A stretch of 64,000 nt of DNA from Campylobacterales bacterium (GTDB lineage Bacteria > Campylobacterota > Campylobacteria > Campylobacterales > Sulfurimonadaceae), in NCBI GenBank assembly GCA_026390165.1, contig JAPLGM010000025.1, positions 29,768 to 93,767 of the forward strand. Direction: 5' to 3'. The notes beneath the pieces were generated by a model. That model ran no database searches, had not been told where the DNA came from, and saw nothing but the letters and a program-made list of their open reading frames with translations. The translations under genes were made by a program, and so were the position numbers. Positions within the stretch are counted from its first letter, which is position 1. Every line of letters starts with the position of its first letter. Shown here piece by piece: positions 40,275-58,394 of the stretch.

Positions 40275-40291
40275 AAGCAATAAAAGTTCCA
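40275..40291 (-). promoter_or_regulatory. Canonical sigma54 promoter of flgL
   Basis: TGGAAC-TTTTA-TTGCTT (GG-N10-GC). The -12 C is 33 nt upstream of the ATG. Confidence 0.8.
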
Positions 40292-40336: not shown

Positions 40337-40352
40337 TCGTACAAAAATTGCA
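40337..40352 (+). promoter_or_regulatory. Variant -24/-12 promoter of nifE
   Basis: TCGTAC-AAAAA-TTGCA, with C in place of the -25 G. The -12 C is 35 nt upstream of the GTG. Confidence 0.6.
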
Positions 40353-40385
40353 GTAACTTAGATACTTCATTCTTAGGAGTTTACG

Positions 40386-41744
40386 GTGGTAAGTCGTGCA
40401 AAAATTAAAGAGCTTATGAATGAGAGCGCTTGTTCTCATAGTAAAGACAAAAAACCAGGAGAAGGGTGCGATAAACCTAAACCTGGTCTTGCCGCAGGTG
40501 GATGTGCCTTTGATGGTGCTCAAATCTCCTTATTCCCCTACGCGGATGCTGTCCATTTAGTGCATGGTCCTCAAACGTGCCTTGGGGCATCGTGGGAAAC
40601 CCGTGAGACAAAAACGTCGTATACGGGACGTGATCATACACAAATGGGCTTTACGACGGGGATTACGACCAATGATGTTATCTTTGGCGGGGACAAACGA
40701 CTTTCTGATTCGATTGATTATGTGATGGAACACTACAAGCCTGAAGCGATTTTTGTCTATTCGACGTGTGTTACGGCATTGGTCGGGGATGATATTGATA
40801 TGACCTGTAAACTAGGGAGTCAAAAACATGGAGTCCCTGTCGTACCTGTCCATGCTGCCGGATTTGTCGGGAGCAAAAATCTTGGTTCCCGTCTAGCGGG
40901 AGAAGCGGTATTGGAACATTTGATCGGTACCAAAGAGCCTGAGTATACAACTCCTTATGATATTAATCTGATCGGTGATTATAACGTTACAGGAGATATG
41001 TGGCAGTATCTTCCCCTCTTTGAGAAGATCGGACTACGCGTGTTGAGTTCTATGAGCGGAGATGGTCGGGTCGGGGATATCCGTACGGCGCATCGCGCGA
41101 AGCTCAATGTCATTGTTTGCGCTAAATCGCTTATCACACTGACCCGTAAGATGCAGGAGCAATACGGTATCCCTTGGATATCCGTCTCATTTTATGGGAA
41201 GCGCGATACGACGTTCGCTATCCGTGAGATTGTGAACGCTTTGGGTGATCCGGAACTCATCGCACGTGCTGAAACGGTCATTGCCGAAGCCGAAGCCCAG
41301 CTGGAAACAGCACTGATCCCGTATCGTCAGTTATTTGCAGGAAAAAAAGCAGTACTCAATACCGGCGGCAATAAAGCGTGGTCGATTGCATCGGGTTTAC
41401 AAGATTTAGGGATTGAAGTCGTTGCAACGAGTATCGCAAAATCGACGCAGGATGACATCGACAAAGCGCGTGAGTATCTGGGTGAAAATGGCGTTTTGAT
41501 GAAGAAGCCCGCCTCTGAGCAGGGGAAAATTATCGACCAGACGGGAGCGCATATCCTCCTTGCAGGTGGACGAAGTCTCTATACGGCGATCAAGAAAAAA
41601 ATCTCCTTCATCGATGTCAATCAGGAGAAAAAAACGAGCTACGGCGGTTATGGCGGATTGCTCAATCTTGCCAAAGATTTGAAATACGCCTTTAAAAATC
41701 CGGTGTTTGCAAATGTTGGTAAACCTGCTCCGTGGGAGATATAG
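40386..41744 (+). CDS. nifE: Nitrogenase FeMo-cofactor scaffold NifE
   Basis: AAGGCAFDGAQ, HLVHGPQTC and YSTCVTALVGDD motifs. Confidence 0.95.
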   Translation: MVSRAKIKELMNESACSHSKDKKPGEGCDKPKPGLAAGGCAFDGAQISLFPYADAVHLVHGPQTCLGASWETRETKTSYTGRDHTQMGFTTGITTNDVIFGGDKRLSDSIDYVMEHYKPEAIFVYSTCVTALVGDDIDMTCKLGSQKHGVPVVPVHAAGFVGSKNLGSRLAGEAVLEHLIGTKEPEYTTPYDINLIGDYNVTGDMWQYLPLFEKIGLRVLSSMSGDGRVGDIRTAHRAKLNVIVCAKSLITLTRKMQEQYGIPWISVSFYGKRDTTFAIREIVNALGDPELIARAETVIAEAEAQLETALIPYRQLFAGKKAVLNTGGNKAWSIASGLQDLGIEVVATSIAKSTQDDIDKAREYLGENGVLMKKPASEQGKIIDQTGAHILLAGGRSLYTAIKKKISFIDVNQEKKTSYGGYGGLLNLAKDLKYAFKNPVFANVGKPAPWEI

Positions 41745-41792
41745 AGAGAAAGAATAGGGCATAATGTAATTTTTGATTACTAAGGAGATACG

Positions 41793-42626
41793 ATGAATCA
41801 AGAATTGCATTATATTCAAGCGTTTTATGATCAGACGATCGCATTTTTGACCAATTACAGTTTCCAAATTATTGGTGCTTTGATTGTTGTCCTACTCGGA
41901 TGGTTTCTTTCAAAATATGTTTTCACTCTCTTAATTAAACTTTTTACTGAGCATGATTTTGATGTGACCCTTGGGAAGTTTATTGCTAATATTGTGAGAA
42001 TACTAATATTTGGAGCAATGTTTGTCATAGCCATCGGAAAACTTGGTATATCTATTGCTCCCTTCATTGCGGCAATCGGGGCTGTTTTTCTGACTGCCGG
42101 TTTGGCATTGCAGGGGAGTGTCGCCAATTTTGCTGCCGGAATTTCACTCATTATTACCCGACCGTTCAAAATCGGCGATACGATTTCAGTCAATAAAATT
42201 TTTGGTGTTGTAGAAGAGATCAAACTCGCCTACACGACCCTGCGAACCGAAGATGAAGAGATCATCACTGTTCCTAATAAAAATATGATTGGCGAGGTGA
42301 TTGTTAACTCTTTTAACTATCGTATTGTGGAGTCGAGTGTCGGTATCTCCTACCATGATGATGCGGAAAAAGCGATTGCCCTTATCAAAAAGACAATTGA
42401 CGGTTTTGAGAATCTTTCCAATGAAAACAAATCTATTGTTGGAATACAAAAATTCGGTGATAATGCGGTTGAGATAGGGATGCGCTACTGGGTGCCTACG
42501 AGAAATTTTTTCAGGATTCAGTATGAAGTGAATATGGCGGTCTATAAAGCACTCAATGACGCAAAAATAACGATCCCTTATCCTCAGAGAGAGGTTCATG
42601 TGTATGGGCAAAATATCCTAAAATAA
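41793..42626 (+). CDS. mscS: Small-conductance mechanosensitive channel
   Basis: GLALQGSVANFAAG, RPFKIGD and IPYPQREVH motifs. Confidence 0.93.
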   Translation: MNQELHYIQAFYDQTIAFLTNYSFQIIGALIVVLLGWFLSKYVFTLLIKLFTEHDFDVTLGKFIANIVRILIFGAMFVIAIGKLGISIAPFIAAIGAVFLTAGLALQGSVANFAAGISLIITRPFKIGDTISVNKIFGVVEEIKLAYTTLRTEDEEIITVPNKNMIGEVIVNSFNYRIVESSVGISYHDDAEKAIALIKKTIDGFENLSNENKSIVGIQKFGDNAVEIGMRYWVPTRNFFRIQYEVNMAVYKALNDAKITIPYPQREVHVYGQNILK

Positions 42627-42651
42627 AGGATAAAGAACCCAACGGGCACCC

Positions 42652-43245
42652 TTATGCCGAAAAGTTTTTCGATAGGGTTTCTTGCAGTGCGTGTAGGGCA
42701 TTATCGAGGCTAAAATCCGATTTGTATACATCATGGACGGAGTAACTTTTTAACGGCGTGGCTCCGCAAAATTGAAATGTTTTGTGTAAAGCGACATTCG
42801 CCTGATCGACGCTCATCCCTTCAAAAAAACCATTAGGATTGTTAAACTCACTCGTCGGGCAGTTGTAGGTGAAGCTGAGCATATACTCTTTCCCCTGCAT
42901 CAATCCTCCACTGCCGTATTTTTTGGATTCATCGTCACGGCTTCGTCCGTCGCTGACGTAGGTAACGGTGTTGTTTCCGCTTGAGAAAACTTCATCGACG
43001 TATTTTTTTGCTAGCCACGGAAGCCCCATCCAGTAGACGGGTGATTGGACAAAAATCGTATCCGCCCATGTAAGCTTTTCAAGCTCTTCGACGACATTGT
43101 AGCCCTCATCAATTGCGGTTTCGCGCACTTCGTAGCCGTTTGCCGAAAAAAACTTTTTGGCTTCGTTGAGGAGATCATGCGTCAGATTGCCGTTGGCAAA
43201 TCCATCGTATTTTTGGTGGAGGTTGAGGAGGAGGACGTGTTTCAT
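42652..43245 (-). CDS. mdaB: NAD(P)H:quinone oxidoreductase MdaB
   Basis: QSPVYWMGLPW and DGRSR...KKYGSGG motifs. Confidence 0.88.
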   Translation of the reverse strand: MKHVLLLNLHQKYDGFANGNLTHDLLNEAKKFFSANGYEVRETAIDEGYNVVEELEKLTWADTIFVQSPVYWMGLPWLAKKYVDEVFSSGNNTVTYVSDGRSRDDESKKYGSGGLMQGKEYMLSFTYNCPTSEFNNPNGFFEGMSVDQANVALHKTFQFCGATPLKSYSVHDVYKSDFSLDNALHALQETLSKNFSA

Positions 43246-43387
43246 GGTATTTTTCCTAGGATAAAGTAATATGTAGATTGTACTAGGATAGGGTTAATGG
43301 GAGATTCATAAAAAGGCACATTGTTTAGGTATTGAAATCCCTAAACAAATCTGATATAATGGGAATTAATTACCATAAGGGGCGAAA

Positions 43388-44599
43388 ATGTTCTCAAAAC
43401 TCTTAATTGAATCGAAAAAATTTATCCTTCGCAATGATCTCTCCTATCAAAGATACTTTATCAAAGAAAATAAAATCAAGCATCGCCTCACCATCATAGT
43501 GGGGCAAAGAGGGATAGGAAAAACTACCACCATCGCGCAGTATATGAAACAACACGACGCACTAAAATCACTCTATGTCAGTATGGACAGCTTTTTGGTG
43601 GGTGAGCTGTCGATGTATGAAATAGCCGAACGCTTTGAGATGGAGGGGGGTAAACTGCTGTGTTTTGATGAGATACACAAATACCAAAATTGGTCGCAAG
43701 AGTTAAAATCGATTTATGATACTTTTCCCTCATTGCAAATTATAGCCTCTGGAAGCTCGGCTTTGGAGATCAACAAGGGGAGTCATGACTTAAGCCGAAG
43801 AGCCAACACGCTCAAAATGGTGGGAATGAGTCTGAGAGAGTATATGGAGCTAACGCTAGCGATAGAACTCCCAAAATACACCCTCCAAGAGATACTACAA
43901 AACCACGAAAATATTGCTTTTGATATCGTGAGTAAATTAGAGAAGATTGATAAAAAGATACTTCCACTCTTTCAGAGATATTGCAAAGTCGGGTACTATC
44001 CGTACAGTTTAAGTATTCAAGACGATGAAATATTTTTTGATATGCTGAACCAAAATATTAATGTATCCATTTCAAGCGATTTGCTTTTTGTCTATCCCAG
44101 TCTCGATGGAAACAGCATCAAAAAGCTTAAACTTCTACTGAATATAATTATGGAAAGTGTGCCGTTTGTCCCTGTGATCGAAAAGCTAAAAAATTCACTC
44201 GATATTGGCGATGGCAGAACGTTGAAGGATTATTTTATCAAACTCGAAGATGCGGGCATTTTGCACCTGCTAATGAAGGCATCGGGTAAAGGGCTTCGAA
44301 AACTGGAAAAACCCGAAAAAATATATCTCAATAATACAAATCTGCTTTCCATAATTACCCCAGAAATAGGGACAGTGCGAGAAACATTTTTTCTAAATGT
44401 TCTAAGTACCCTGCACACTGTCACCTATCCGCAAAAAGGAGATTTTTTGGTGGACAATAGGTACCTTTTTGAAATCGGTGGAAAAAATAAAGGCTTTACA
44501 CAGATAAAAGACATAGAAAATAGTTTTGTGGCGAGCGACGACATTGAGATTGGATATAAAAATAAAATTCCCCTCTGGATATTTGGATTTTTGTATTAA
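43388..44599 (+). CDS. AAA+ ATPase with DUF4143 domain
   Basis: GQRGIGKTT Walker A, FDEIH Walker B, ASGSS, KIYLNN and DFLVD...EIGGK motifs. Confidence 0.88.
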   Translation: MFSKLLIESKKFILRNDLSYQRYFIKENKIKHRLTIIVGQRGIGKTTTIAQYMKQHDALKSLYVSMDSFLVGELSMYEIAERFEMEGGKLLCFDEIHKYQNWSQELKSIYDTFPSLQIIASGSSALEINKGSHDLSRRANTLKMVGMSLREYMELTLAIELPKYTLQEILQNHENIAFDIVSKLEKIDKKILPLFQRYCKVGYYPYSLSIQDDEIFFDMLNQNINVSISSDLLFVYPSLDGNSIKKLKLLLNIIMESVPFVPVIEKLKNSLDIGDGRTLKDYFIKLEDAGILHLLMKASGKGLRKLEKPEKIYLNNTNLLSIITPEIGTVRETFFLNVLSTLHTVTYPQKGDFLVDNRYLFEIGGKNKGFTQIKDIENSFVASDDIEIGYKNKIPLWIFGFLY

Positions 44600-44710
44600 A
44601 TTCCAAGCCTTGAGGTGCTCTGGACAGGCTGAATCAATCCCCCTAAAAAGATTGATGTTATTCTTGCAAAAGTGGAATGACCCCCAAATACTAGATCCTC
44701 TTTTCTCCCC

Positions 44711-44726
44711 TCGCACAAATCTTGCA
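44711..44726 (+). promoter_or_regulatory. Variant -24/-12 promoter of nifN
   Basis: TCGCAC-AAATC-TTGCA. The -12 C is 28 nt upstream of the ATG. Near-identical to the nifE site. Confidence 0.62.
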
Positions 44727-44752
44727 ATACTCCTTATAATTAAGGAGTTGCC

Positions 44753-46051
44753 ATGGAATTCTCCCTCACGCACAAAGAACACAAACCGCTTCAAGTCAAT
44801 CCGATCAAACACTCTCAGCCGATGGGCTCAACCCTCGCATTTTTAGGAGTTAAGGGTTGTATGCCTCTCATGCACGGTGCGCAAGGGTGTGCGTCGTTTA
44901 CAAAGGTCTTTTTTACTCGTCATTTTAATGAACCGATTGCTGTACTCAATACGTCAGTGAGCGATATCACAGCGGTACTGGATGGGGGTGACTATTCGAT
45001 ATTGATGGCGATTGAAAATATTCAAAACAAAGAGAAAAATCTTAAACCCTCCATGATAGGCTTGCACACCACGGGTCTGACCGAGACTAAAGGGGATGAT
45101 GTACGCGGTGTGGGGACACACATCGAAATTCCCTACGTTTTTGTCAATACACCTGATTATGAGGGGGGGATGGAGAGCGGATGGGCACTTACGGTTACGG
45201 CTATGATTGAGCAGCTGACTGACTCTGCAACCGAGGTAAAGGCTAACAAACTCGTCCTTTTACCCCATCTGAGTATGCAACCCATTGAGGTTGAAAAGAT
45301 TAAATCTCTTTGTGAAGATTTTGGATTCGAGACCTACGCACTTCCTGATCTCTCTACCTCGCTGGACGGGTATTGGGAAGAGGCTCAGGGGAAGCTTGCC
45401 AATGGTGGGATAGGTGTTGATGAGATACGCGCTCTTGGTGATTGTGCCACGGTAGTTACTATTGGGCACTCGATGAAAAAATCGGCAGCTGCTTTGCAAA
45501 AAAAGAATCCTCTTATAAAACACCTCCATTTCGATCATCTGATGGGATTGGATGGGTGTGACAATTTTGTCGCCCAACTGATGAAAATCCGACATACACA
45601 GCCAGAACCTCTGATGAAGCGATGGCGTGCACGTTTGCAAGATGCAATGCTGGATTCTCATTTTTTGATCGGGAGTTCCCATTTTGTCATAACTGGTGAG
45701 CCGGATATGCTCACTGGAATGTGCGCGCTGATCCGCAGTGTTGGGGGAACCATTGATGCCGCGGTCTCTACGACCTTTAGCGATGCACTGCATACCATTG
45801 ATGCCGAAAAAGTGTTTGTCGGGGATTTAGAAGATGCCCGATTGTTTTTTGATGGGGCAGATATGGTTATCAGTAATTTTCATTCAGAACGAATCTTGCA
45901 TAGTTATCATAATACGGCACTTGTTATTCGAGGATTTCCTAATTATGAAGAGTTGGGGAACCAGCTCAAAAATGATCAGCTGTATGAAGGTAGCGCCTAT
46001 TTTTTATTTGAAATTGCCAACGCATTGAGAAAGGTCAAACATGAACACTAA
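44753..46051 (+). CDS. nifN: Nitrogenase FeMo-cofactor scaffold NifN
   Basis: NPIKHSQPMG, HGAQGC, RHFNEPI and TGLTETKGDD motifs. Confidence 0.95.
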   Translation: MEFSLTHKEHKPLQVNPIKHSQPMGSTLAFLGVKGCMPLMHGAQGCASFTKVFFTRHFNEPIAVLNTSVSDITAVLDGGDYSILMAIENIQNKEKNLKPSMIGLHTTGLTETKGDDVRGVGTHIEIPYVFVNTPDYEGGMESGWALTVTAMIEQLTDSATEVKANKLVLLPHLSMQPIEVEKIKSLCEDFGFETYALPDLSTSLDGYWEEAQGKLANGGIGVDEIRALGDCATVVTIGHSMKKSAAALQKKNPLIKHLHFDHLMGLDGCDNFVAQLMKIRHTQPEPLMKRWRARLQDAMLDSHFLIGSSHFVITGEPDMLTGMCALIRSVGGTIDAAVSTTFSDALHTIDAEKVFVGDLEDARLFFDGADMVISNFHSERILHSYHNTALVIRGFPNYEELGNQLKNDQLYEGSAYFLFEIANALRKVKHEH

Positions 46052-46493
46052 AATCAAAGTAGAGGGGAACGGTACGATGGAGAACGCTTTGCGAGTTGCT
46101 TTTGCGACCAAAGATATGGAAGAGGTTAATGCTCATTTTGGCGGAGCCAAAGAGTTTGTTGTTTATAACGTTTCGAAAGATGGTTATGAAGTTTCTGAAG
46201 TGATCAAAACCGATACGAATGATATAGAGGATGATGATAAAACCGAGTTTCGTGTTCGTGCCCTTAAAGGGGTAAATATTATGTACTGTGAGTCTATCGG
46301 TGGGACAGCAGCGGCAAAAGTGATTCGTGCCGGTATCCATCCGATGAAGGTGACTGAATCGACCGTGATCGCTGATATTTTGAAAAGTTTGGTCGCCATG
46401 ATTAATGGGAATCCTCCACCGTGGATAAAGCAGATTATTCAAATGAAAACCGAACACGATGTACGACAAGACAGATGGGCAGAGGGAGAATAA
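46041..46493 (+). CDS. nifX: Nitrogen fixation protein NifX
   Basis: RVAFAT...VNAHFGGA and IGGTAAAKVIRAGIHPMK motifs. Confidence 0.92.
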   Translation: MNTKIKVEGNGTMENALRVAFATKDMEEVNAHFGGAKEFVVYNVSKDGYEVSEVIKTDTNDIEDDDKTEFRVRALKGVNIMYCESIGGTAAAKVIRAGIHPMKVTESTVIADILKSLVAMINGNPPPWIKQIIQMKTEHDVRQDRWAEGE

Positions 46494-46498
46494 ATACA

Positions 46499-46954
46499 AT
46501 GGAAGCAGAAAAAAAAATAAGTGATTTCGGTATTGAAATCATTCGACAAATACGAGCACTCGATCAGTTTGGAAATTGGTCACGTATGAGTGATGAAGAA
46601 CTGCTTATCAAAAAGTATGTTAAAACCAAAGAGGAACTCAAAGCCGTTCCCGTCATTGCAGATATTGATGAGATGATGATTAATGACATCAAAATGATTT
46701 ATAAAGCAATAGCGTTATCCTTTGAGCGTAAAACGGGCGTTGTTTGCAATGTTATTATGGAAATGAGCCATGAGGGTTTTGGACGATGTGCGGTTATTAC
46801 GGATCGCATTTGTATTGTCGATAAGTATTTCAAAGATGCACACCGATTTAGTTTTCGTACCCTTGAAGCACTCTTCGAAGAAGGGGATAAAAATCTCTCT
46901 CGAGCACTCAGTATTTATGAACAATATCAACCGTGTAGTGGGCAAGGAGCATAA
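46499..46954 (+). CDS. NifX-associated protein (DUF269)
   Basis: RALDQFG, SHEGFGR and DAHRFSF motifs, located directly after nifX. Confidence 0.88.
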   Translation: MEAEKKISDFGIEIIRQIRALDQFGNWSRMSDEELLIKKYVKTKEELKAVPVIADIDEMMINDIKMIYKAIALSFERKTGVVCNVIMEMSHEGFGRCAVITDRICIVDKYFKDAHRFSFRTLEALFEEGDKNLSRALSIYEQYQPCSGQGA

Positions 46955-46956
46955 CA

Positions 46957-47472
46957 ATGGCAAAAATAGGTATTTTTTTCGGTAGTAGCAGTGGAGTGAC
47001 GCGAAAAGCAGCAGAGTTATTGGAAGAGCAATTTTCGGATGTTGAGCTCATCGATATGGAAGAAGATTATGATGATATTGAACAGTTTGATGCGTTCGAT
47101 ATTTTACTTATCGGTTCCTCTACATGGGGTCAAGGTGATGTGCAACGAGACTGGGTTGATCCTCTCTATGAACTGGACAATGAACACCCTGATTTTAGTG
47201 GTAAAAAAGTGGCATTCTTTGGGGCTGGGGATCAAAAAACCCATGGAGAACATTTTTTGAGTGCGTTGGGAAAAATGCACGATTTATTTGTCTCTCTTGG
47301 GGCAAAATCGTATGGATTTATACCCGTTAGCGGATATGAATACAAATTTTCTTTAGCCGAAAAAGAGGGAAAATTGTGTGGATTGGGTATCGATGATGTG
47401 AATCAAGACGATTTAACCCAAGAGAGAGTCATCGCGTGGGCAAACCAGCTCAAAAACGAGATGGGACTATAA
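46957..47472 (+). CDS. Long-chain flavodoxin (NifF-like)
   Basis: GSSSGVT, STWGQG, FGAGDQ and GLGIDDVNQ motifs. Confidence 0.92.
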   Translation: MAKIGIFFGSSSGVTRKAAELLEEQFSDVELIDMEEDYDDIEQFDAFDILLIGSSTWGQGDVQRDWVDPLYELDNEHPDFSGKKVAFFGAGDQKTHGEHFLSALGKMHDLFVSLGAKSYGFIPVSGYEYKFSLAEKEGKLCGLGIDDVNQDDLTQERVIAWANQLKNEMGL

Positions 47473-47482
47473 GGAGATTATT

Positions 47483-47857
47483 ATGGGTACGTTAGACGAA
47501 TTTCAAAAGATTACGGATACGGAAGAGTTTTTCGAGTTTTTTGATCTCTCTTACGATGAGCGATTAGTGAATTCAAAACGATTTCATATCATGAAAAAAT
47601 TTGGAGAGATGGCAGATAAAGCAAAAGAGCATGATATGGGAAGCGATGAAAAATTGCTTGAATATTATAAATTTGCCCTTATCAGTGTGTATAAAAATTT
47701 TGAGAATGGTTACAGTCCATCAGCAGCAGACGTATGGGATATGTTTGATAAACCTAGCGCGTGCGGTACGTGTTCAACCTCCACGAATTGTAATGATGTA
47801 GAGGAGGTCAGTAATGGAGTCCACGCCTGCGTCAGCACCCACACCGTCAGTTTCTGA
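47483..47857 (+). CDS. nifW: Nitrogenase-stabilising protein NifW with a Cys-rich tail
   Basis: EEFFEFFDLSYD...VNSKRFHIMKKF pattern. Confidence 0.85.
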   Translation: MGTLDEFQKITDTEEFFEFFDLSYDERLVNSKRFHIMKKFGEMADKAKEHDMGSDEKLLEYYKFALISVYKNFENGYSPSAADVWDMFDKPSACGTCSTSTNCNDVEEVSNGVHACVSTHTVSF

Positions 47858-48266
47858 AGGAGAGGTTGAACACCCTATTGATGAAGAGGCTCGCCGTACT
47901 AACCTTTATAAAATGTCGACAAAAGATGAGATTCTTTCGGTATTTCGAGTAGGGCAAAGGGTACGACTTACGAAGGCAATACGAAATGACGGAACGTATC
48001 CCCATGGACAAATTGGTGATACGCTCATCGAGGCAGGGGCGGAGGGATATGTTCGTAAGATCGGCGATTTCCTCCAAACGATACGGGTCTATGAAGTCAA
48101 TTTTATTGAACAAGGGATGGCTTTTGGCTGTCGTGAAGCTGAGCTTGAAAGTGCTCTTGAAGATGATGGTTATGATGAAGTTGCAGAAGAATTAAAATGG
48201 CTTAAAGAACATCGTGCACAAAGAGCTGCGCAAAAAGCATTGCAATCTCAAGAAGGGGAGGAGTAG
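47814..48266 (+). CDS. nifZ: NifZ
   Basis: VRLTKAIRNDGTYP...G.EGYV...GCREAEL. RBS GGAGG lies inside nifW. Confidence 0.92.
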   Translation: MESTPASAPTPSVSEGEVEHPIDEEARRTNLYKMSTKDEILSVFRVGQRVRLTKAIRNDGTYPHGQIGDTLIEAGAEGYVRKIGDFLQTIRVYEVNFIEQGMAFGCREAELESALEDDGYDEVAEELKWLKEHRAQRAAQKALQSQEGEE

Positions 48267-48349
48267 TTCACTTTTTTGAGATATGTGCAGACTTCAAAGA
48301 TACGAATTGCCATGAGCGTATCAATGGAGAATTTTCAGGAGGAGTTAAT

Positions 48350-48733
48350 ATGGTAAATGTCATTTTTTGTGGTTTTGGTGAAAAACAAGACAAACGTGTT
48401 TTTGCTAAAGCTGGCGATGTGTTATTGCGTGTAGCTCAGAGTAACGGAGTTTCTATTCCATCGGATTGTAAAGATGGAATGTGTGGAAGTTGTGCAGTAC
48501 GTATTGAAGAAATTTCTAACGATGAGAAAATGGATTCAACAACGGAAGATTATGTATCAAAAGGGCAAGCTGTTTATATGGATGATAAAGAGCTTGAAAC
48601 CTTGATGCAAATGGGTGCAATCACTAAAAAAGAGGCAGAAATTGCTCAACAGTACAATCGTCCAACACCGGTACGTTTGGCATGTCAATGTGTGATCAAA
48701 AATGCTTCAATATTAGTGAAGCCGTTTAACTAA
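48350..48733 (+). CDS. [2Fe-2S] ferredoxin, FeSII (Shethna protein II)-like
   Basis: C-x4-C-x2-C-x63-C with LLRVAQSNGVSIP, DKE..L...G and RLACQ motifs. Confidence 0.8.
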   Translation: MVNVIFCGFGEKQDKRVFAKAGDVLLRVAQSNGVSIPSDCKDGMCGSCAVRIEEISNDEKMDSTTEDYVSKGQAVYMDDKELETLMQMGAITKKEAEIAQQYNRPTPVRLACQCVIKNASILVKPFN

Positions 48734-48757
48734 AATAATACAAAATAAGGGGTTGAG

Positions 48758-49048
48758 ATGACAACACGTGTAGAAATTATTAATGACTTTTTGGCGATCA
48801 ATGTCCATCCGGGTAAAACGATTCAAGATATCGTTGAAGCATCAGGAAGTGCATTGCCGTTTGGATGCCGTGATGGCGAATGCGGTACGTGTGTCGTGAT
48901 GATCGAATCGGGGATGGAGTTCATGAGCCCTATCAATGAAAAAGAGAAAGCGGTACTAAAAACGCTCAATGAGAGTAATCCAAAAGCGCGTCTTGCATGT
49001 CAAATGAAAGTGCTACAGCCAAACGGATTGGTACGTATTAAATACTAA
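48758..49048 (+). CDS. [2Fe-2S] ferredoxin
   Basis: LPFGCRDGECGTC...RLACQ (C-x4-C-x2-C-x35-C). Confidence 0.9.
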   Translation: MTTRVEIINDFLAINVHPGKTIQDIVEASGSALPFGCRDGECGTCVVMIESGMEFMSPINEKEKAVLKTLNESNPKARLACQMKVLQPNGLVRIKY

Positions 49049-49056
49049 TTTCTAAT

Positions 49057-49083
49057 CAATTCAGCTAAATTTTAGCTGAATTG
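49057..49083 (+). terminator. Perfect 13-bp inverted repeat after the ferredoxins
   Basis: CAATTCAGCTAAA-T-TTTAGCTGAATTG followed by CCTTCTTTTT. Confidence 0.5.
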
Positions 49084-49132
49084 CCTTCTTTTTAATCACC
49101 TATAATTCCCATCGATCCCTATAATATTAGTT

Positions 49133-49148
49133 AAGAACACAATATGCA
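49133..49148 (+). promoter_or_regulatory. Variant -24/-12 site upstream of rpoN
   Basis: AAGAAC-ACAAT-ATGCA. The -12 C is 39 nt upstream of the ATG. 14 of 16 positions are identical to the site at 58329-58344. Confidence 0.5.
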
Positions 49149-49185
49149 GTCAAATGCATAATAAACTCATTATTAGGGATTACTA

Positions 49186-50451
49186 ATGCACACGTCTCTC
49201 TCCTATAAACAAAAACAACTCCCTAGATTATCGATGCAAACATGGCTTCCGCTCTTGCAATGTTCCCTCAATGATTTGGAGAAACATTTACAAGTCATTA
49301 GCAATGAAAACCCTTGTCTTGAAGTAAAATCAGGATTTGAGGAATCCAATGCACAAGCAGGTGGATCATCCGTATACGGTGCATTCCAAAATTATGTCTC
49401 TAACGCCTCTTCGGATCAAATTGAGTGGTTGAGTATCTCCTCAACCTCCTTGTATGAAAAATTGGATGAACAGATCGTCGCGCCTTTATTTCCCACCCCC
49501 ATATCTCAGAAAATTGCCCGTCAGATTATCTATTATATCAGTGATGAAGGGTATTTTGAAGGGAGTGTTGAAGAGATTGCCCAACAATGTGATACCGATG
49601 TCCAAACCGTGGAGCGGGTACGTCAGCGATTTTCTCATCTTGAGCCAGCAGGCGTTGGGGCGTGTGATTACAAAGAGTCCTTTTTGTTTCAGCTCAATGA
49701 TTACGAACTGGATGATGATTTGAGTATTTTGCTCTCAGCGATGATTTTACAGTTCGATAAGATGGAAAAATTTATCAAAAATCCCCGTTTCACAGATGCG
49801 AAACATGTGCTACAACATCTCAAAAATCCTCCTGCATTGGAGTATATGGAGCCAGAGGCACAAATAATTCCTGATCTTTTTGTAGAATTGACAGGATCAG
49901 AATTGGATATTCGAATCAATCATGCTTTTTACCCCGATTTAAAAGTTAATATGATTGATAAATACGACAATTTTGCCAAACAAAAGTTCAAAGAGGCACG
50001 AGAATTGGTGAAACTCATGGATCTTCGAAAAGCGACCCTCTATAATGTTGCTTTGGTCTTAATCGAAAAGCAGTACAGTTTCTTTATGGGAGGTGAGCTT
50101 AAACCGCTTCGACTTCAAGATGTTGCGGATGAGTTGGGCTTTAATGAATCGACAATTTCCAGAGCCATTTCGGATAAATATATGCAAACACAGCGGGGGC
50201 TCTATCCGTTCAAAGATTTTTTCTCCAATTCGATCGGTGAAGTATCGACCGCTGAGATCAAACACTTTTTGAAACGGCTAGTGTCGAGTGAAAACAAAGA
50301 GGATCCTTTTAGTGACAAAATACTTCATGAGATGATCGAAGAGCGTTTTGGGGTAACAATGGTACGTCGCCTTATCGCCAAATATCGGCAAGAACTTGAT
50401 ATTCCACCTTATAAAGAGCGGCTGTTTTTATACAAACTTGAGTTATTGTAA
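49186..50451 (+). CDS. rpoN: RNA polymerase sigma-54 factor (nif-island paralogue)
   Basis: Region I WLPLLQ, EPAGVGA, HTH ESTISR, PFSD, and an RpoN box reading VRRLIAKYRQ. Confidence 0.93.
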   Translation: MHTSLSYKQKQLPRLSMQTWLPLLQCSLNDLEKHLQVISNENPCLEVKSGFEESNAQAGGSSVYGAFQNYVSNASSDQIEWLSISSTSLYEKLDEQIVAPLFPTPISQKIARQIIYYISDEGYFEGSVEEIAQQCDTDVQTVERVRQRFSHLEPAGVGACDYKESFLFQLNDYELDDDLSILLSAMILQFDKMEKFIKNPRFTDAKHVLQHLKNPPALEYMEPEAQIIPDLFVELTGSELDIRINHAFYPDLKVNMIDKYDNFAKQKFKEARELVKLMDLRKATLYNVALVLIEKQYSFFMGGELKPLRLQDVADELGFNESTISRAISDKYMQTQRGLYPFKDFFSNSIGEVSTAEIKHFLKRLVSSENKEDPFSDKILHEMIEERFGVTMVRRLIAKYRQELDIPPYKERLFLYKLELL

Positions 50452-50461
50452 TTGATATCTC

Positions 50462-51373
50462 TTATACTTCGCAATAAATGGTATTTCTTCCCATCTCTTT
50501 TGCCTTGTAAAGCATTTCATCAACGAGTTTTAAAAGGTTTTCGCAGTCACTTTCGTTGTTTATTGTTGAAATTGCATATCCCACACTAACCGTCACATGG
50601 GCAGCTACTTTTGAATAATTATGGGGGATATTAAGATTCTCAACGCTGTCTTTGAGTTTTTGTGCCACATTTTTTGCCCCCTCTATGTCTATTTCAGGGA
50701 GAATGACAATAAACTCTTCTCCACCGTATCGACATACAAAGTCGCTATCTCTATTAAGGACGCTTTGAAGTTTATTGGCTACTTTTATGAGGCATTCGTC
50801 ACCGGCACCGTGCCCGTATCCGTCATTAAAGGCTTTAAAGTAGTCGATATCCATCATAACTAGTGCAAGGGGTTTAGCGTGTCTCATTGATCGGCCACAC
50901 TCGCTTTTAAATGTTTCGTCAAATCTTCGTCTATTGGCAATGCCGGTAAGGCCGTCTATCATGGCAAGTTTTTCGAGCATCTGTGTTTTTAGTTTTAGAT
51001 TTATATGGGTCTTCACCCTCGCTTTGATTAATAAGGGCTCATAGGGTTTGACGATATAGTCAACCGCACCAAGATTGAATCCTTGCATCTGATCGCTGAC
51101 TTCGTCTTTAGCACTGACAAAAATAACGGGAATCTCGGAAGTCGCCGAGTTTGATTTGAGTTTTTTACAGACTTCGTAGCCATCCATAACCGGCATCATA
51201 ATGTCCAAAAGTATCAGATCGGGCATTTCTATAGCGTTCGCTATCTGCAGCGCCTTTTCTCCACTCGTGGCAATCTTGATACTATAATCATTTCCCAGAA
51301 TTTCTGCCAGAAGCTGTATATTGGCCGTTGCGTCATCCACAATTAATATAGTAGGTTTTTTGCTAAACATCAC
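50462..51373 (-). CDS. Response regulator diguanylate cyclase (REC-GGDEF)
   Basis: REC domain (LIVDD, LLDIMMP), intact GGEEF and RxxD I-site (RDSD). Confidence 0.93.
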
Positions 51374-54300
51374 TTCGCCTTTAAATCAGTTGTTATTATA
51401 TCTATTGTGTCGATTGCTGCATCATAGTTCATGTTTCTTATTTGTGATACAAGTAAGGCTACGTGTACCTCATCCTTTACGCCATCTAAACACGCTTGCA
51501 GCTCATGCAACATACTCTCTGAAATAAACATATCCTGAGATGCGATCTCTCTTACCGTACTTAACATCTCAAGCGCCTCATCTGCTGTGCAAGCATTTAC
51601 GCTAGGATGGATTTCATCCATAAATATATTTTCAATATTAGTAAGGGTCTTATCGAGTTGATTAAAAAATTCATCAAGCGACTCACTCTTTTTTTGCTGA
51701 AGCTGATTTTCTAGTGTTTTTGTTGCTTCATAAAGCTCTAGTGCCCCTATATTTCCAGAAGCACCTTTTAGTGAATGTACCAATGCCAGCGCTTCATCAT
51801 ATCTATTATTATCTAAATAATGGCGCAGACTCTCTTTCGTATCTTTTTGGCTTTTTGCAAAATTAGTCAAGATATGATAGATCGCGTTACGATCCAGTCC
51901 TATTTGTGCAAACCTTTCATTGTCAAACCCTTTGAGATACATCCCTTTATCATTATTAGAGAGGGTATCTATATCTTCTTTATTTTGACGTTTTATCCAT
52001 TTTTGAAGGACAATGAAGAGCTCGTTAACGTCAATAGGTTTGGAGATATGGTCGTTCATGCCGGCAGCAAAAGTTTCTTCTCTGTCTTGTTTCATGGCAG
52101 CTGCTGTCATTGCCACAATAGGCAAAGAGTGGCATCCCGGTAAGGCTCTGATTTTAGCGGTGGCCTCAAAGCCGTCCATTATGGGCATCTGCAAATCCAT
52201 CAGTACGATGTCAAATTGCTCTTTAGAAGCTTTTTCAACGGCTTCTAGCCCATTTTCAGCAATTTCTATAGTAACGATTCCCAGCTTTTCAAGAAACCCC
52301 TTGGCGACTAGCTGGTTTGTCTGGTTATCTTCTACCAGAAGGACTTTTACTCCGCGAAACGCTTTTGAACCATTATTTAAGCTCTCACTCGTTTCCAAAG
52401 AGAAGGGTGTAAACCTAGTATCATCTTCCCCTTGAAGCGTCATGATTGTATCCATCAAATTTGATGGAGTTACCGGTTTTTCTAATATGGCATCGAGAGT
52501 GACGTGATGCGCAGACTCAAGAACTTCATCTTTTTTGTAGGTCGTAACCATAATTACGAGGGGGGAATGTTTCGCTTCATAACTCTTCATCTGTTCTTCG
52601 AGATGCGTTGCAAGTTCAATGCCGTCCATTCCGGGCATTTTCCAGTCTATTAGATACGCCTCATACGGTTTCCCCTCTTCAAGTGCCTTCAAAGAAAGGT
52701 TTAGAGCCTTTTCACCGGAGGTAGCCAATGTCACATCAAAAGACCATGACTCAAGAATTTTCTGCATTATCTCTAACGACGTTTCCTGATCATCGACCAC
52801 GAGGGTTTTCATCCCTCTGAGATTGTATATACTTCTCTGCTCTTCAGGTTTATTGGCAGGCAGTAGTGGAATTTTGAAGAAAAACGTGCTTCCTTTCCCC
52901 GGCTCGCTATCAATCCCTATTTCACCCCCCATCAAATCTATAATCTGTTTACTGATGGTAAGCCCAAGACCTGTTCCGCCAAACTTTCTCGTAGTAGACA
53001 TATCGGCCTGCGTAAATGCCTGAAACAATTTATCCGCTTGTTCTTTCGTCATACCGATACCGGTATCTTGTATCGTAAATAACAGTTCTTGATTCCCATC
53101 AGCATTAACTTGAGGGGCTATTTTTAGATGAATTTCCCCTTTGTAGGTAAACTTAACCGCATTGCCGACTAAATTATTGAGTATCTGAGATAATCTAAGA
53201 GGATCACCTCTTAGCCTATCAGGCACACCGTTTGCCATCTCAATAAAGATTTCTAACCCCTTCTCTTCGGCCTTTACGCTAAAAAGACCTGAGACGTTGC
53301 GCAGCAGTTTTTCAAGCGAATAGTCGATATTTTCAAGGCCGAGTTTGCCTGCCTCAATTTTAGAATAGTCCAGAATATCGTTAAGAATATTAAGGAGAGC
53401 TGCGGATGAATCCTGTACTTTTTGCAAATAGTTTCTTTGCATAGGGGTAAGCTCGGTATCGAGTACCAGCTTTGTCAGACCCAATACGGCATTCATAGGG
53501 GTTCGTATCTCATGGCTCATATTGGCGACAAAGTCGCTTTTTGCCTTGTTTGCCGATTCTGCTTGCTCTTTGGCGTGCATTAGTGCTTGTTCGGCTAGTC
53601 TTTGCTCGGTAATGTCTTGGATGGTACCAATAGAGCGGAGCGGTTTTTCGTTCTCGTCAAAAGTGGTTTCGCACTGTTCACGAACATATTTTATTCTACC
53701 GTCGTTCATCAGCAGCCTATGAACTATCTCATAACCGTTTTTCGTTTCCAATGAGTGTGTATACGCATCATTAACCCTGTCTCTATCATCCGGGTGAATA
53801 GCATGTAAAAACGCTTCATAGGATGCGTAAAATTTTTCTTTGTCAAGTTCAAATAGGTGAAAAATTTCATCGGACCAATCAAGCTTGTTGCTAATCAAAT
53901 CAAGAGACCAATTGCCGATTTTGGCTAGCGACTCGGCTTTTTTCAGATTATCGTTTATCTGAGCGGATTCTTCATAGCTGGCATCAAGCGCGGTATTGGC
54001 CTCTTCGAGTTCTCTTGCCTGCTTAGTTAGCAGCTCGTTAAGCCTGATTGCCTCGTCTTTTTGCGCTTCTGCCTTTTGCAGTTCAAGCTTGCTGAGTGCC
54101 GCGCGAAAATTAGCTTTTATTACACATAATAACAAATACGTTAAGAGAGTAAAAAACAAGATCGTTAGCGTGCTAGTTAACAAAGCGTTGTGAAACTCTT
54201 TTTTCATGATCGGCAGTGTCGCATCTTGGCTGTAAAAAGTGATGTATCCGATATAGTGTTTTGAGTAATCATAAAATGGGTTAAGGACTATCGCATAATC

Positions 54301-55188
54301 CTCATTGTTCACTTTTGCATAAAAACAGATAGCCTGTTTCTTAGATATTGACTCGTCAAATTCTTTCGGTTTTTGCTCAAAAATCTTTTGTAATAGCTCA
54401 AGTTCTTTATCCTGATAAATTAACGGGTTGTGATACAAGTTATTTGCAAGGAGGGAAGTCGCCATTTTTTTAGAATTAATATCGATCGGTATTTCAGGCG
54501 GGGATTCCAATGATAGGTACGTACTTGTTCTGAAGTTGTCTTGCAATGTTTTGTAGATTTGCGACTCATCAATACCCAGTTCAATACTCCCCAAGAAACG
54601 GTTCTGTTCGCGTATTGGAAAAACATATCGATAGGCATTAAAAAAACGGCCCAATTCAAAACCGTAATCACTTTTTTGATGTTCATGAACACTCTTTATG
54701 AGCTTTCTAAAAGATAGTACATTATCACCATACTCTTTTTGTTTTTGAAACCGGATAATAATATCTCCGCGTGTATTTTGAATCTGAAGTATCTTTAACG
54801 AGAGTGTCGTATTTGTTTTGTAGGTAGACTCAAATTTTGCTAATAGCAAATCGTGGGCTTTTTTGGTTTCATTTTTGTCATTTGAAATTTTGAGCGCATT
54901 TTTCATTGTTTCATCTGCGATTAATCTTTGAGCTTGAACTTCCGAAGCTGTTTTATACGCTTTGATAGTAGCGTTATATTCTTCATTCCATTGAGTTTTT
55001 AAGTTATTTAAGTAATCCTCAACATTCGCATCATATTTATTTTTTGTAATTGAGTAGGTACCGATTTCACCGATTATAAATACGAAAAGTATTAAAACCC
55101 GGAATGAAATTGTACTGGATACTAATAATGATACGAGCCCAGCTATTAATCTAGTATAAGATGATTTGATACGTGAGAATTTTGTCAT
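51370..55188 (-). CDS. Hybrid histidine kinase (Cache-PAS-HisKA-HATPase-REC-REC-Hpt)
   Basis: [24 protein letters not shown], two REC domains and HSLKG. Confidence 0.93.
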
Positions 55189-57765
55189 TTAATTCCCCTC
55201 TTTTAAAATTTTCATAATCGTATCTATGGTGTCAAGCGCCTTAGTATAGTCCATCTCTCTTATTTGCAATATGAGTCTGGCTATTTGTTTTTCATCCACG
55301 GTTCCATGCAGAGATTCTTGAACTTCATAGACGATATTCTCAGGGACAAACATGTCTTGTGATGTAATACTCTTTAATTGTTCAAGCACTTTTAAGGCAT
55401 CGTGTATGGTATAGTTTTTTGAGTTATCAGTTTTTTTGTTTATCGGTATAGTTTCAATATCGGTCAGTATTTCGGCAAGAGAGTGGTAAAACTCCTCAAG
55501 CGAATCGGTATGATTTGAGTTAAGCTCATTCTCCAGTTTTTTCGCCGCCTCATAAAGCTTTGTCGCCCCTATGTTTCCGCTAGAGCCTTTTATCGAGTGG
55601 ATTAGTGCGGATACTTTATCAAATCTACCATGCGCTAAATGGTCATTTAGCATCACTTTTGCATCTTTATAGCTTCGAACGAAACTGTAAAACATATCGA
55701 CAATGGCATCACGATCCAGCCCTATGTGTCTGAATGTAGCCAATCGTGTAGTGTCAAAGCCCTTGAAATCTATATTGTTTTCATCCGTATTTTTTTTTAC
55801 CTCAATAGAACAGGGTTGGCTATCGTGCGGCTTTATCCACTTTTGAAGGGTTGTAGCCAACTCTTCAAAATTTATAGGCTTAGAAATATGATCGTCCATA
55901 CCGGCTGAGAGGGAATCGGCTTTATCTTGTTTCATGGCGGATGCGGTCATCGCAACAATAGGTATATTTTTGCCGCAGGGTAAAGCTCTGATTTTGCGTG
56001 TCGCTTCAAATCCCCCCATAACGGGCATTTGCAAATCCATCAATACAATGTCGTATGTATTCTCGGTCACTTTGTTGAGCGCTTCAAGACCATTTTCAGC
56101 GATTTCTACAACACCCCCTAATTTATCCAGAAACCCTTTGGCGACCAATTGATTGGTCGGGTTGTCTTCTACCAAAAGAATCTTCGCCCCTTGGATCGCT
56201 TTCGATGCCTCGATTATAATTTTATCGCTATTCGAAGGAGTGGTTGCAAACGTACTGATTTCTCCCCCTTGAAGGGTCATAATCGTATCCATAAGGTTTG
56301 AAGGGGTGACGGGTTTTTCCAGTATTGCATCCAGTTTTATGTTCTTTGCAGTTTCTACGACTTTATCCTTGCTGCATGCGGTTACCATGATTACAAGAGG
56401 CGCGCGTCCACTCTTATGGAGATCGGTCTGCTCGTTAATAAGTTTAGCCAGTTCTACTCCATCCATCCCCGGCATTTTCCAGTCTATCAGATAGATTTCA
56501 AAAGGGTTACCTTGTTTCAATGCTTCCAACGAAAGGCTAAGTGCTTTTTCTCCGGAGTTTGCCAAGGTTACGTCAAAAAACCATGAACGGAGGATTTTTT
56601 CCATCACTTCGAGTGACGTTACCTGATCATCTACGACCAACGTCCTCATCCCTTTTAAATGTAAGGGGCTTCTTCCGTGTATGGATTCTTTGGCAGGTTG
56701 CAACGGTATCGTGAAGTAAAACGTACTCCCTCTACCAAATTCGCTTTCAACCCATATCTCTCCACCGATTAGCGCCACAAGCTGTTTGCTGATGGTCAGC
56801 CCAAGCCCGGTGCCTCCATATTTTCGGGTGGTGGAGGTATCGGCCTGGGTAAATGGCTGAAACAGATTGCCGGCTTGCTCTTTGGTCATACCGATACCGG
56901 TATCTTGTATGGTAAATAAAAGCATTTGTGTACTGTTTGGATCGATCAGGAGATCAATTTTGATATGAATTTCCCCTTTTTCGGTAAATTTTACGGCATT
57001 TCCGACTAGATTGTTAAGGATTTGAGATAGACGAAGTGGATCTCCCCTGAGCATAAGCGGCATACCCTCGGCAATATCAAAAAAGATCTCTATATCTTTC
57101 TCTTCGGCTCTTGCACTAAAGAGTCCGGATACATTGTGTAATACTGCCTCTAATGAGTAATCAACCTCTTCAAGACCTAGTTTGCCTGCTTCCATTTTGG
57201 AGTAGTCTAAAATATCATTGAGAATGTTTAAGAGGGCGGTTGATGAGTCTTGTACTTTTTGAAGATAGTTTCTTTGCATGGGGGTAAGTTCTGTATCCAG
57301 TACCAGCTTTGTGAGTCCCAAAACGGCATTCATCGGGGTTCGTATCTCGTGGCTCATATTGGCTACAAAGTCGCTTTTTGCCTTGTTTGCCGCTTCTGCA
57401 TGTTCTTTGGCACTCACTAATTCCCTATTGATTCGCTTTAAGTTTTCACTGACAACCCCAAAAGCGTACCCCAATACAATAAAAACCACTACCGAAAGAT
57501 ACGCACTGGGATTGTGTTTGACCAATTCAAAGGTTGGCGGTATGAAAAACCAAAAAACTATGATTGCACTGACAACCGATGAGATCATAGCTCCACGCAG
57601 ACCCCCAAGGCGTGCCATAAAAAATACGGTAGGATAAAACAAAAACCATACATACGGTTTAAACATAAACCATAGAGAAGTTTGCAGTGCAAGGGTGATA
57701 AAAGGGACAATAAATGGCAATAAATAGGTCAATATAAAATTTTTATCTATTCGACTAAATCCCAT
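55189..57765 (-). CDS. Hybrid histidine kinase (membrane sensor-HisKA-HATPase-REC-REC-Hpt)
   Basis: Four-TM DUF4118-like sensor and the same kinase core as its neighbour, with HSIKG. Start placed at ATG 57765 (RBS AAGGA). Confidence 0.92.
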
Positions 57766-57899
57766 TGACCTATCCTTTATTAAGTGGTGATACTTGAATG
57801 ATAACATATTTTTATGTGAGCTGAATTCAGTCCGAAGGATCTTTATACGAATACGCGATACCGTGCTTGGCACGGTATGAAAAAAAAGAGATAGTAGGA

Positions 57900-58295
57900 T
57901 TAGCTAGATGGCGTATCAATAGCCGTGAAGAAGGTATTGCTTTTGGTTGTGGTACGAGGCTCTGGTTGAGCAAGTGCCGTTTCTCCTTTTTCTCCTGTAC
58001 GGATACGTTCGACTTCAAGGACGGGGGTGACCCACATTTTTCCGGCACCGTGTCCTAGATCTTGGGTATGGGAACGGACACACTCCATAGCTGTTTTTTT
58101 ATGCGCTTCATCGGAGACGACGATAAGTAGCATCACTTTGGGAAATAGATCGGGAGCATTATTTTTTTCAGCAATCCCCAGTGACCCTTTTCCGATCACA
58201 TCCATGACGGTTACCCCTTCGATTAAATTGTCAAAAAGTTCTTTTAACACATCGTTGAGGCAGTGTTTGTTAAATACAGCGGTAATTTGGACCAT
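57900..58295 (-). CDS. P-II superfamily protein (non-canonical)
   Basis: [18 protein letters not shown] and RIRTGE motifs, with a short T-loop. Confidence 0.85.
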
Positions 58296-58328
58296 TTTGG
58301 ACCCCTAGTATTGGAATATTGTAGATAT

Positions 58329-58344
58329 TGCATATTGCGTTCTA
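58329..58344 (-). promoter_or_regulatory. Variant -24/-12 promoter of the P-II operon
   Basis: TAGAAC-GCAAT-ATGCA on the minus strand. The -12 C is 35 nt upstream of the ATG. Confidence 0.5.
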
Positions 58345-58354
58345 GCGAGTTGGT

Positions 58355-58370
58355 ATGACAAAAATGTCAT
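58355..58370. promoter_or_regulatory. Inverted repeat between divergent promoters
   Basis: ATGACA-AAAA-TGTCAT, centred between the two variant -24/-12 sites. Confidence 0.4.
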
Positions 58371-58378
58371 TCTCTAAC

Positions 58379-58394
58379 GAGAACATCTTTTGCA
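58379..58394 (+). promoter_or_regulatory. Variant -24/-12 promoter of nifU
   Basis: GAGAAC-ATCTT-TTGCA. The -12 C is 39 nt upstream of ATG 58432. Confidence 0.55.

Follow-up and report, generated by a model that had tools for sequence, protein, structure and literature searches.

Sigma-54 paralogs dedicated to nitrogen fixation, with distinct promoters and activation of their own gene, are already known in alpha-proteobacteria. In Cereibacter (Rhodobacter) sphaeroides RpoN1 with NifA and RpoN2 with FleQ act in a gene-specific manner to which sigma-activator pairing contributes (PMC11999139). The promoters of the two systems are told apart at -11, in the form in which that article cites Poggio et al. 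2006 (PMC11999139). In Rhizobium etli and Mesorhizobium loti NifA activates an rpoN2 gene that belongs to the symbiosis region, in M. loti within a prxS-rpoN2 operon; an extra weak promoter was proposed for its basal expression, and RpoN2 was suggested as the sigma factor required by a nifH promoter with an atypical A at -12 (PMC3538637). Orthogonal sigma-54 variants were also engineered: R456H/Y/L, combined with rewired -24 elements, drove a nif cluster, and R456 with TGGCA is described there as the combination at which sigma-54 arrived in nature (Nucleic Acids Res 2025, PMC12096077). The subject of the present analysis is a stretch of 64,000 nucleotides (the window; positions 29,768 to 93,767 of contig JAPLGM010000025.1, named C1 hereafter, of assembly GCA_026390165.1) in a genome of 2.64 Mb and 32 contigs that is a Sulfuricurvum (Sulfurimonadaceae). 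The window carries a nif-linked rpoN gene and five members of a real, conserved sigma-54-type promoter class that lacks the GG doublet and is tied to this dedicated nif sigma-54 and to a NifA-like activator. New here are the lineage (Campylobacterota), the deviating position (the G at -25), the extension of the deviation to the whole regulon and its family-wide conservation. Literature searches yielded no paper linking rpoN and nif in Sulfuricurvum, Sulfurimonas or Campylobacterota.

As in C. sphaeroides, paralogous sigma-54 factors are present, here probably for nif and for flagella, with one activator each (a matter of counts and co-occurrence only in the present genome), and the promoter classes differ at fixed core positions, here -25 and -11. 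The C. sphaeroides pair, from the alpha-proteobacteria and of independent origin, keeps GG in both promoter classes, in contrast to the present case; here the flagellar activator is devoid of a DNA-binding domain. The likeness to rhizobial rpoN2 is that of a nif-region rpoN with a regulon-type promoter, and a basal promoter may be present as well. The atypical base is at -12 in rhizobia (GA for GC) and found at nifH only, whereas here it is at -25 and in every promoter of the regulon. The engineered pairs resemble the natural case in that a sigma-54/promoter pair is present beside the native pair through an altered -24 doublet. The engineered changes affect Arg456 and, within the doublet, its 3' G (GG to GA, GC or GT), whereas in the natural case both arginines and the 3' G are kept and the 5' G is changed (AG or CG). 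The flagellar class found here (flgE, flgL, flgI, flgH and rod genes, with a REC-AAA activator without HTH) matches the RpoN/FlgR regulon of Helicobacter and Campylobacter, which have one rpoN and no nif genes, while two rpoN genes are found together with nif here. The FlgR protein of H. pylori works without an enhancer.

Two classes of -24/-12 promoters

The five nif-island sites reported in a first-pass annotation of this DNA are all found in the window letters as quoted there, and the genes behind them are rightly named: nifE, nifN, a full-length rpoN, the weakly P-II-like head of an operon, and nifU. The C at -12 precedes the respective start codons by 35, 28, 39, 35 and 39 nucleotides (nt), again as reported. 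Note that the nifU distance depends on the ATG at 58432, a start that is backed by the orthologs (MARD..LIGGALWEEYS). None of the five sites has GG at -25/-24. The canonical site attributed to flgL, the gene divergent from nifE, is present 45 nt from the nifE site. The nifN site equals the general sigma-54 consensus TGGCAC-N5-TTGCA in a base-for-base alignment, except at -25. The promoters of the window are the following:

40337..40352, plus strand, nif-class promoter of nifE, TCGTAC-AAAAA-TTGCA, with C at -25
44711..44726, plus strand, nif-class promoter of nifN, TCGCAC-AAATC-TTGCA
49133..49148, plus strand, nif-class promoter of the nif-linked rpoN, AAGAAC-ACAAT-ATGCA
58329..58344, minus strand, nif-class promoter of the P-II-like/kinase/GGDEF operon, TAGAAC-GCAAT-ATGCA
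58379..58394, plus strand, nif-class promoter of nifU, GAGAAC-ATCTT-TTGCA
40275..40291, minus strand, flagellar-class canonical sigma-54 promoter of flgL, TGGAAC-N5-TTGCTT

The whole genome was scanned on both strands with xG-NAC-N5-[T/A]TGCA, every base being tried at x. A or C at x gives 54 matches genome-wide; 12 of these fall between genes, 27-71 nt ahead of a gene that runs in the same direction. G at x gives 30 matches genome-wide, none with a promoter-like placement, and T gives 31, none of which is intergenic at promoter distance from a co-oriented gene. An automatic count based on a crude caller of open reading frames (ORFs) also finds 12 well-placed matches versus ~1.9 expected, far above chance. 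Eleven of the twelve sites are within 66 kb of contig C1 (70-136 kb), the nif region. The twelfth is in contig C2, at 3 kb from its end, and precedes a small Cys-rich ORF; the ortholog of this ORF in the relative G080 likewise has a nif-class site ahead of it. The seven sites added to those of the window precede nifH, nifB (with the -12 C 72 nt before the start codon), a divergent 147-residue ORF, an epsilon-type nifS, a MoxR-like ATPase, a flavodiiron protein and the small ORF of C2. Those of nifH, nifB and nifS, all outside the window, had been predicted from the motif when it was derived post hoc from the five sites, as had the absence of such sites at flagellar genes; both predictions are borne out by the genome scan. 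With a weight matrix derived from these 12 sites they score 18.3-26 bits, the best other intergenic match staying below 16. The earlier claim that the sites are sigma-54-type promoters defining a nif regulon is supported by these 12 sites, all ahead of nif-region operons. A match in a coding region of the nif area, CAAGTACAAAAGTTGCATT (C1:109461-109479, outside the window), scores 18.2 bits 115 nt before a small ORF and may be an internal promoter. The extra matches of a relaxed scan (TGCN) of the nif regions were discarded, being mostly noise at start codons.

The consensus of the 12 nif-class sites is c-T-[A/C]-G-A-A-C-A-N4-[T/A]-T-G-C-A. Position -25 is A in seven and C in five of them, never G or T. 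The G at -24, the sequence [T/A]TGCA (hence GC at -13/-12) and the 10-nt gap between the doublets, which is the canonical spacing, are found in 12/12. The flagellar genes are served by a different, canonical promoter class, as the first-pass annotation had it. Its nine sites read T-T-G-G-A-A-[C/T]-N5-T-T-G-C-T-T and belong to flgL, an epsilon-type flgE, a rod protein gene, flgI, flgH and others. The classes show no overlap at -25, which is G in 9/9 flagellar versus A or C in 12/12 nif-class sites, and -11 splits them as cleanly (T in 9/9 versus A in 12/12). Since the first G of the GG doublet is missing, the nif-class sites are a variant of the sigma-54 promoter and not canonical members. Two other parsings of the motif were rejected. 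TAGAAC as a sigma-70 -10 box is a misfit for the CG variants TCGCAC and TCGTAC, and TGCA is kept at a fixed distance; a shifted register (GA at -25/-24, N9 spacing) was discarded in favour of the canonical one, which fits nifN perfectly to TGGCAC-N5-TTGCA, the -25 base apart. A hybrid-looking AAGAAC-N5-TTGCTT (A at -25, flagellar-type -12 region) before the gene of an unclassified Tat-signal protein at C18:54497-54515 is probably due to chance. Direct TTTGT..TTTTGTC repeats ~20 nt apart are conserved in the genus upstream of nifH (L006 ~2045-2075; L099-L125).

Sigma-54 paralogs, activators and their relatives

The second, nif-island sigma-54 of the first-pass annotation is confirmed, as the genome codes for two full-length RpoN proteins. 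The one of the window is:

49186..50451, plus strand, nif-linked sigma-54 paralog of 421 amino acids with activator-interacting, core-binding and DNA-binding domains

The second rpoN is at C5:25862-27103. The two proteins are 39% identical and have all three sigma-54 domains; the RpoN box of the nif-linked one reads VRRLIAKYRQ. In a tree, clades of nif-linked RpoNs stand apart from the flagellar RpoNs. Exactly two proteins of the genome have a true sigma-54 interaction domain (PF00158, both >240 bits). The NifA-like activator (544 amino acids, GAF-AAA-HTH_8) is encoded at C1:94114-95748, ~350 nt beyond the window end. The FlgR-like activator (385 amino acids, REC-AAA) stops right after the AAA lid and is without HTH. 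Two promoter classes, two paralogs and two activators are present together, and their conservation and co-occurrence extend to relatives.

Orthologs of the nif-linked RpoN have 86-94% identity within Sulfuricurvum and 72-77% in several other genera of Sulfurimonadaceae. Of 27 Sulfuricurvum genomes, 26 have TAGAAC-N5-WTGCA as the promoter of nifH and one has TAGAAT, A being found at -25 in 27/27. Genomes G143 and G080, from other genera, have two RpoNs each. The base at -25 of their nif-region sites is A in 10, C in 1 and G in 0 of the 11 sites of G143, and A in 8, C in 2 and G in 0 of the 10 of G080. In the complete genomes G140 and G070, from two further genera, the sole RpoN is nif-type and the sole activator NifA-like; G is found at -25 in 3/11 and 2/5 sites, respectively, including nifH as GGGAAC. 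Pooled, G at -25 amounts to 5/16 sites in single-RpoN genomes versus 1/36 in two-RpoN genomes (Fisher p = 0.008, ignoring phylogeny). Sites in a position orthologous to that of nifE are present in G140, G143 and G080. The number of activators equals that of RpoNs in all nine genomes checked. Four genomes with a nif-type RpoN alone have the NifA-like activator alone and nif-class promoters still present, so that the nif-type RpoN is the sole sigma-54 available to read them. The occurrence of G, A and C in single-RpoN genomes means that its reading of -25 is relaxed, not switched. The altered specificity postulated in the first-pass annotation is better taken as a relaxed one than as a strict switch, since orthologs in G140 and G070 serve promoters with A, C or G at -25.

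Other features of these relatives deserve mention. In G070, G106, G140 and G122, which represent two genera of Sulfurimonadaceae, the nif-type RpoN and the NifA-like protein are the only sigma-54 and activator, and sigma-54 appears to serve nitrogen fixation alone. Genomes G005, G006 and G028 (Sulfuricurvum, estimated 99% complete) have the nif-type rpoN and no nifH match, which could be an assembly gap or a loss of nitrogenase with the sigma factor kept. A sister clade of the nif-linked RpoN, with proteins of 408-421 amino acids and the RpoN box VRRTITKYRK, is found in some Sulfurimonadaceae (genus g26; loci L199-L201, from G192:C1:500000-559999, L152-L156, L158 and L193-L197). Five promoters in the nif region of G192, those of nifH and nifE among them, have the form GG[A/T]A[C/T]-N5-NTGTA, where GT replaces the near-invariant GC at -13/-12.

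Residues R455 and R456 of sigma-54 form hydrogen bonds with bases, the 3' G being the one read by R456 (PMC12096077). A hydrogen bond with the -24 DNA is also made by T457, and a double substitution at 457/458 abolishes binding of the Klebsiella protein (PMC2715252). Position 457 is T in 15/15 flagellar-type RpoNs and L, V or S in 29 nif-type RpoNs with the same promoter class. The Leu of the RpoN box was consequently rejected as the cause of the -25 preference, since orthologs serving the same class have V or S. Thirty-five positions of the carboxyl-terminal half separate the two paralog families and none stands out.

The rpoN transcription unit and the neighbouring genes

Two elements are found between the nif-linked rpoN and the ferredoxin gene upstream of it:

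49057..49083, plus strand, terminator-like hairpin in the sequence 3' of the ferredoxin gene
49120..49125, plus strand, TATAAT box 8 nt upstream of the nif-class site of rpoN

The hairpin that follows the ferredoxin gene makes rpoN a separate transcription unit, whose own nif-class promoter implies a positive feedback loop. Such autoregulation had been put forward in the first-pass annotation, and the arrangement is conserved: the motif is kept as AGAACA-N4-ATGCA in ~40 Sulfuricurvum loci and a nif-class site also precedes rpoN in G070, G140, G143, G080 and G077. At 8-9 nt ahead of this motif, ~40 Sulfuricurvum genomes keep CTATAAT or CTATACT. The TATAAT box may be a basal sigma-70 -10 element that would prime the autoregulatory loop, much as was proposed for the weak promoter ahead of rhizobial rpoN2 (PMC3538637); a simple sigma-70 scan did not call it, for want of a -35 match. 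Four lake metatranscriptomes contain the organism, in short contigs of low depth only, and show that rpoN and the P-II/kinase operon are transcribed; in four other RNA runs nothing but conserved stretches of nifH from relatives is present. A single contig over the 5' end of nifH (L006 2154-2351, run X10, depth ~3.7) has its first base where the motif has its last, which is 8-11 nt ahead of the predicted transcription start.

The other genes headed by nif-class promoters in the window are the following:

40386..41744, plus strand, nifE (TIGR01283, 523.7 bits)
44753..46051, plus strand, nifN (profile match)
57900..58295, minus strand, P-II-like gene, first of its operon (weak P-II match, under the family cut-off)
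58432..59409, plus strand, nifU, with the start set at the ATG at 58432

An MscS-type channel, a P-loop ATPase and an oppositely oriented flavodoxin-like/NAD(P)H oxidoreductase-like gene lie between nifE and nifN (41793-44599), and these intervening genes explain that nifN has a promoter of its own. The genes after nifN code for NifX, a NifX-associated protein, a flavodoxin (fldA-like), NifW and ferredoxins. The P-II-like operon also holds two hybrid histidine kinases and a GGDEF response regulator, and its promoter is back to back with that of nifU, a divergent arrangement found as well in G143. Midway between these two promoters is a perfect palindrome, ATGACA-N4-TGTCAT (58355-58370), which is too near for a typical enhancer and may be an operator of another regulator.

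Reading of the nif-class promoters

The nif-class sites are most likely the -24/-12 promoters of the nif regulon, probably read by the nif-linked RpoN (49186-50451) together with the NifA-like GAF-AAA-HTH protein. This sigma factor would keep the G at -24, AC at -21/-20, the exact spacing and TGCA at -14 to -11, and would do without the G at -25, A being preferred, C common and G tolerated in relatives. The assignment is favoured by the two disjoint promoter classes, by the equal numbers of RpoNs and activators, by the conservation of the sites and by the GG that nifH carries in Campylobacterales genera without this RpoN clade (G050, G056, G043, G058). The RpoN encoded at C5:25862-27103 and the FlgR-like activator would serve the TTGGAAY-N5-TTGCTT flagellar promoters. 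An activator without a DNA-binding domain would be expected to work on every closed complex that its own sigma forms; since the FlgR-like activator is of this kind, nif promoters that the flagellar holoenzyme cannot read would insulate both circuits. The insulating features would be the non-G base at -25 and the A at -11, and we infer that the avoidance of G beside a flagellar RpoN and the fixed difference at -11 fit an insulation of two sigma-54 circuits. The nif-linked rpoN would feed back positively through its own nif-class promoter, a basal level possibly being provided by the upstream TATAAT.

A set of observations weighs against this assignment. Promoters of nif genes that bear GG are served by orthologous RpoNs in G140, G070 and G077, which rules out a strict switch, and G077 is a counter-example in having two RpoNs and yet GG at nifH. 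The comparison of single- and two-RpoN genomes by the Fisher test, besides ignoring phylogeny, takes its site lists from a simple pattern scan. The two paralogs share both RpoN-box arginines, and the variation of position 457 among orthologs with the same promoter class means that no residue accounts for the preference at -25. A search for an upstream activator sequence by k-mer enrichment found none that occurs at every one of the 12 promoters; TGT-N10-ACA, the classical site of NifA, is present at 4/12 versus 0.5 expected. Start sites were sought in the sparse contigs of public metatranscriptomes and none was resolved; contigs also span the nifN promoter, for which read-through out of the gene upstream or contamination of the library with DNA are possible.

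A rather unlikely but serious alternative is that the sites are sigma-54 promoters which neither paralog discriminates by DNA, the missing G at -25 weakening the closed complex so that expression depends tightly on a NifA-like activator. The division of labour would then come from sigma-activator pairing or from the timing of expression. Weak nif promoters with tight activator dependence are known in Klebsiella and provide the analogy. This explanation agrees with the tolerance of nif-type RpoN orthologs for G, A and C at -25, with the two arginines kept in both paralogs, and with the part that sigma-activator pairing plays in the specificity of C. sphaeroides (PMC11999139). It accounts poorly for the pattern of the deviation: random weakening would spread the mismatches, whereas 12/12 sites deviate at one position and are otherwise near-perfect, and the deviation at -25 is maintained across genera. 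T is shunned at -25 as strictly as G (chance p ~2e-4), the base at -11 is wholly different between the classes, and G at -25 is less frequent in genomes that also have a flagellar RpoN.

It is much less probable that the motif serves a nif-specific DNA-binding regulator as its operator, or another sigma factor as its promoter, with the real promoters elsewhere. Such an interpretation could draw on the lack of mapped start sites, on the metatranscriptome contig that begins at the last base of the nifH motif and on the conserved TATAAT just upstream of the rpoN motif. The motif nevertheless fits the sigma-54 consensus at all conserved positions but one, with exact spacing; it is non-palindromic, strictly directional and at a promoter-like distance in 12/12 cases, and its CG versions are unlike a -10 box. 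Besides the ribosome binding site and the 5' leader, it is the only conserved element in the ~75-110 nt upstream of nifH, and a dedicated sigma-54 and a NifA-like activator are encoded in the same region. That the resemblance among sites arose by chance, from choosing the motif after seeing them, has next to no probability left. The motif was indeed derived from the same five sites, but seven more are found outside this training set (nifH, nifB and nifS included), the sites are concentrated in 2.5% of the genome and they are conserved in dozens of genomes; genome scan, weight matrix and conservation refute this explanation.

The reading by a nif-linked RpoN and a NifA-like activator can be extended, as a tentative possibility, to natural orthogonal sigma-54/promoter pairs in diazotrophs of the Campylobacterales. 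An old duplication would have led to nif-linked RpoN clades with private promoter dialects that the flagellar holoenzyme could not read; the clade described here would use [A/C]G-N10-GC and the VRRTITKYRK sister clade GG-N10-GT. The driving force would be a flagellar activator without a DNA-binding domain that would otherwise fire any promoter occupied by its sigma.

The GG doublet at -25/-24 is considered almost invariant in sigma-54 promoters and prediction tools rely on it. Standard scans would miss a regulon without the G at -25, including the core nitrogenase operons of widespread sulfur-oxidising bacteria. If the nif-linked paralog discriminates between the promoter classes, it would be a natural counterpart of the orthogonal sigma-54 built by mutagenesis, reached via a different change. 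It would then offer synthetic biology a ready-made, insulated expression pair gated by an activator, and structural studies a test case for the reading of the 5' base of the doublet by the RpoN domain. Insulation of a regulon from an enhancer-independent activator is a suggested reason for the duplication of sigma-54 and, if orthogonal pairs of this kind are indeed spread among these diazotrophs, the GG/GC rule would be a property of one sigma-54 lineage and not of the whole family.

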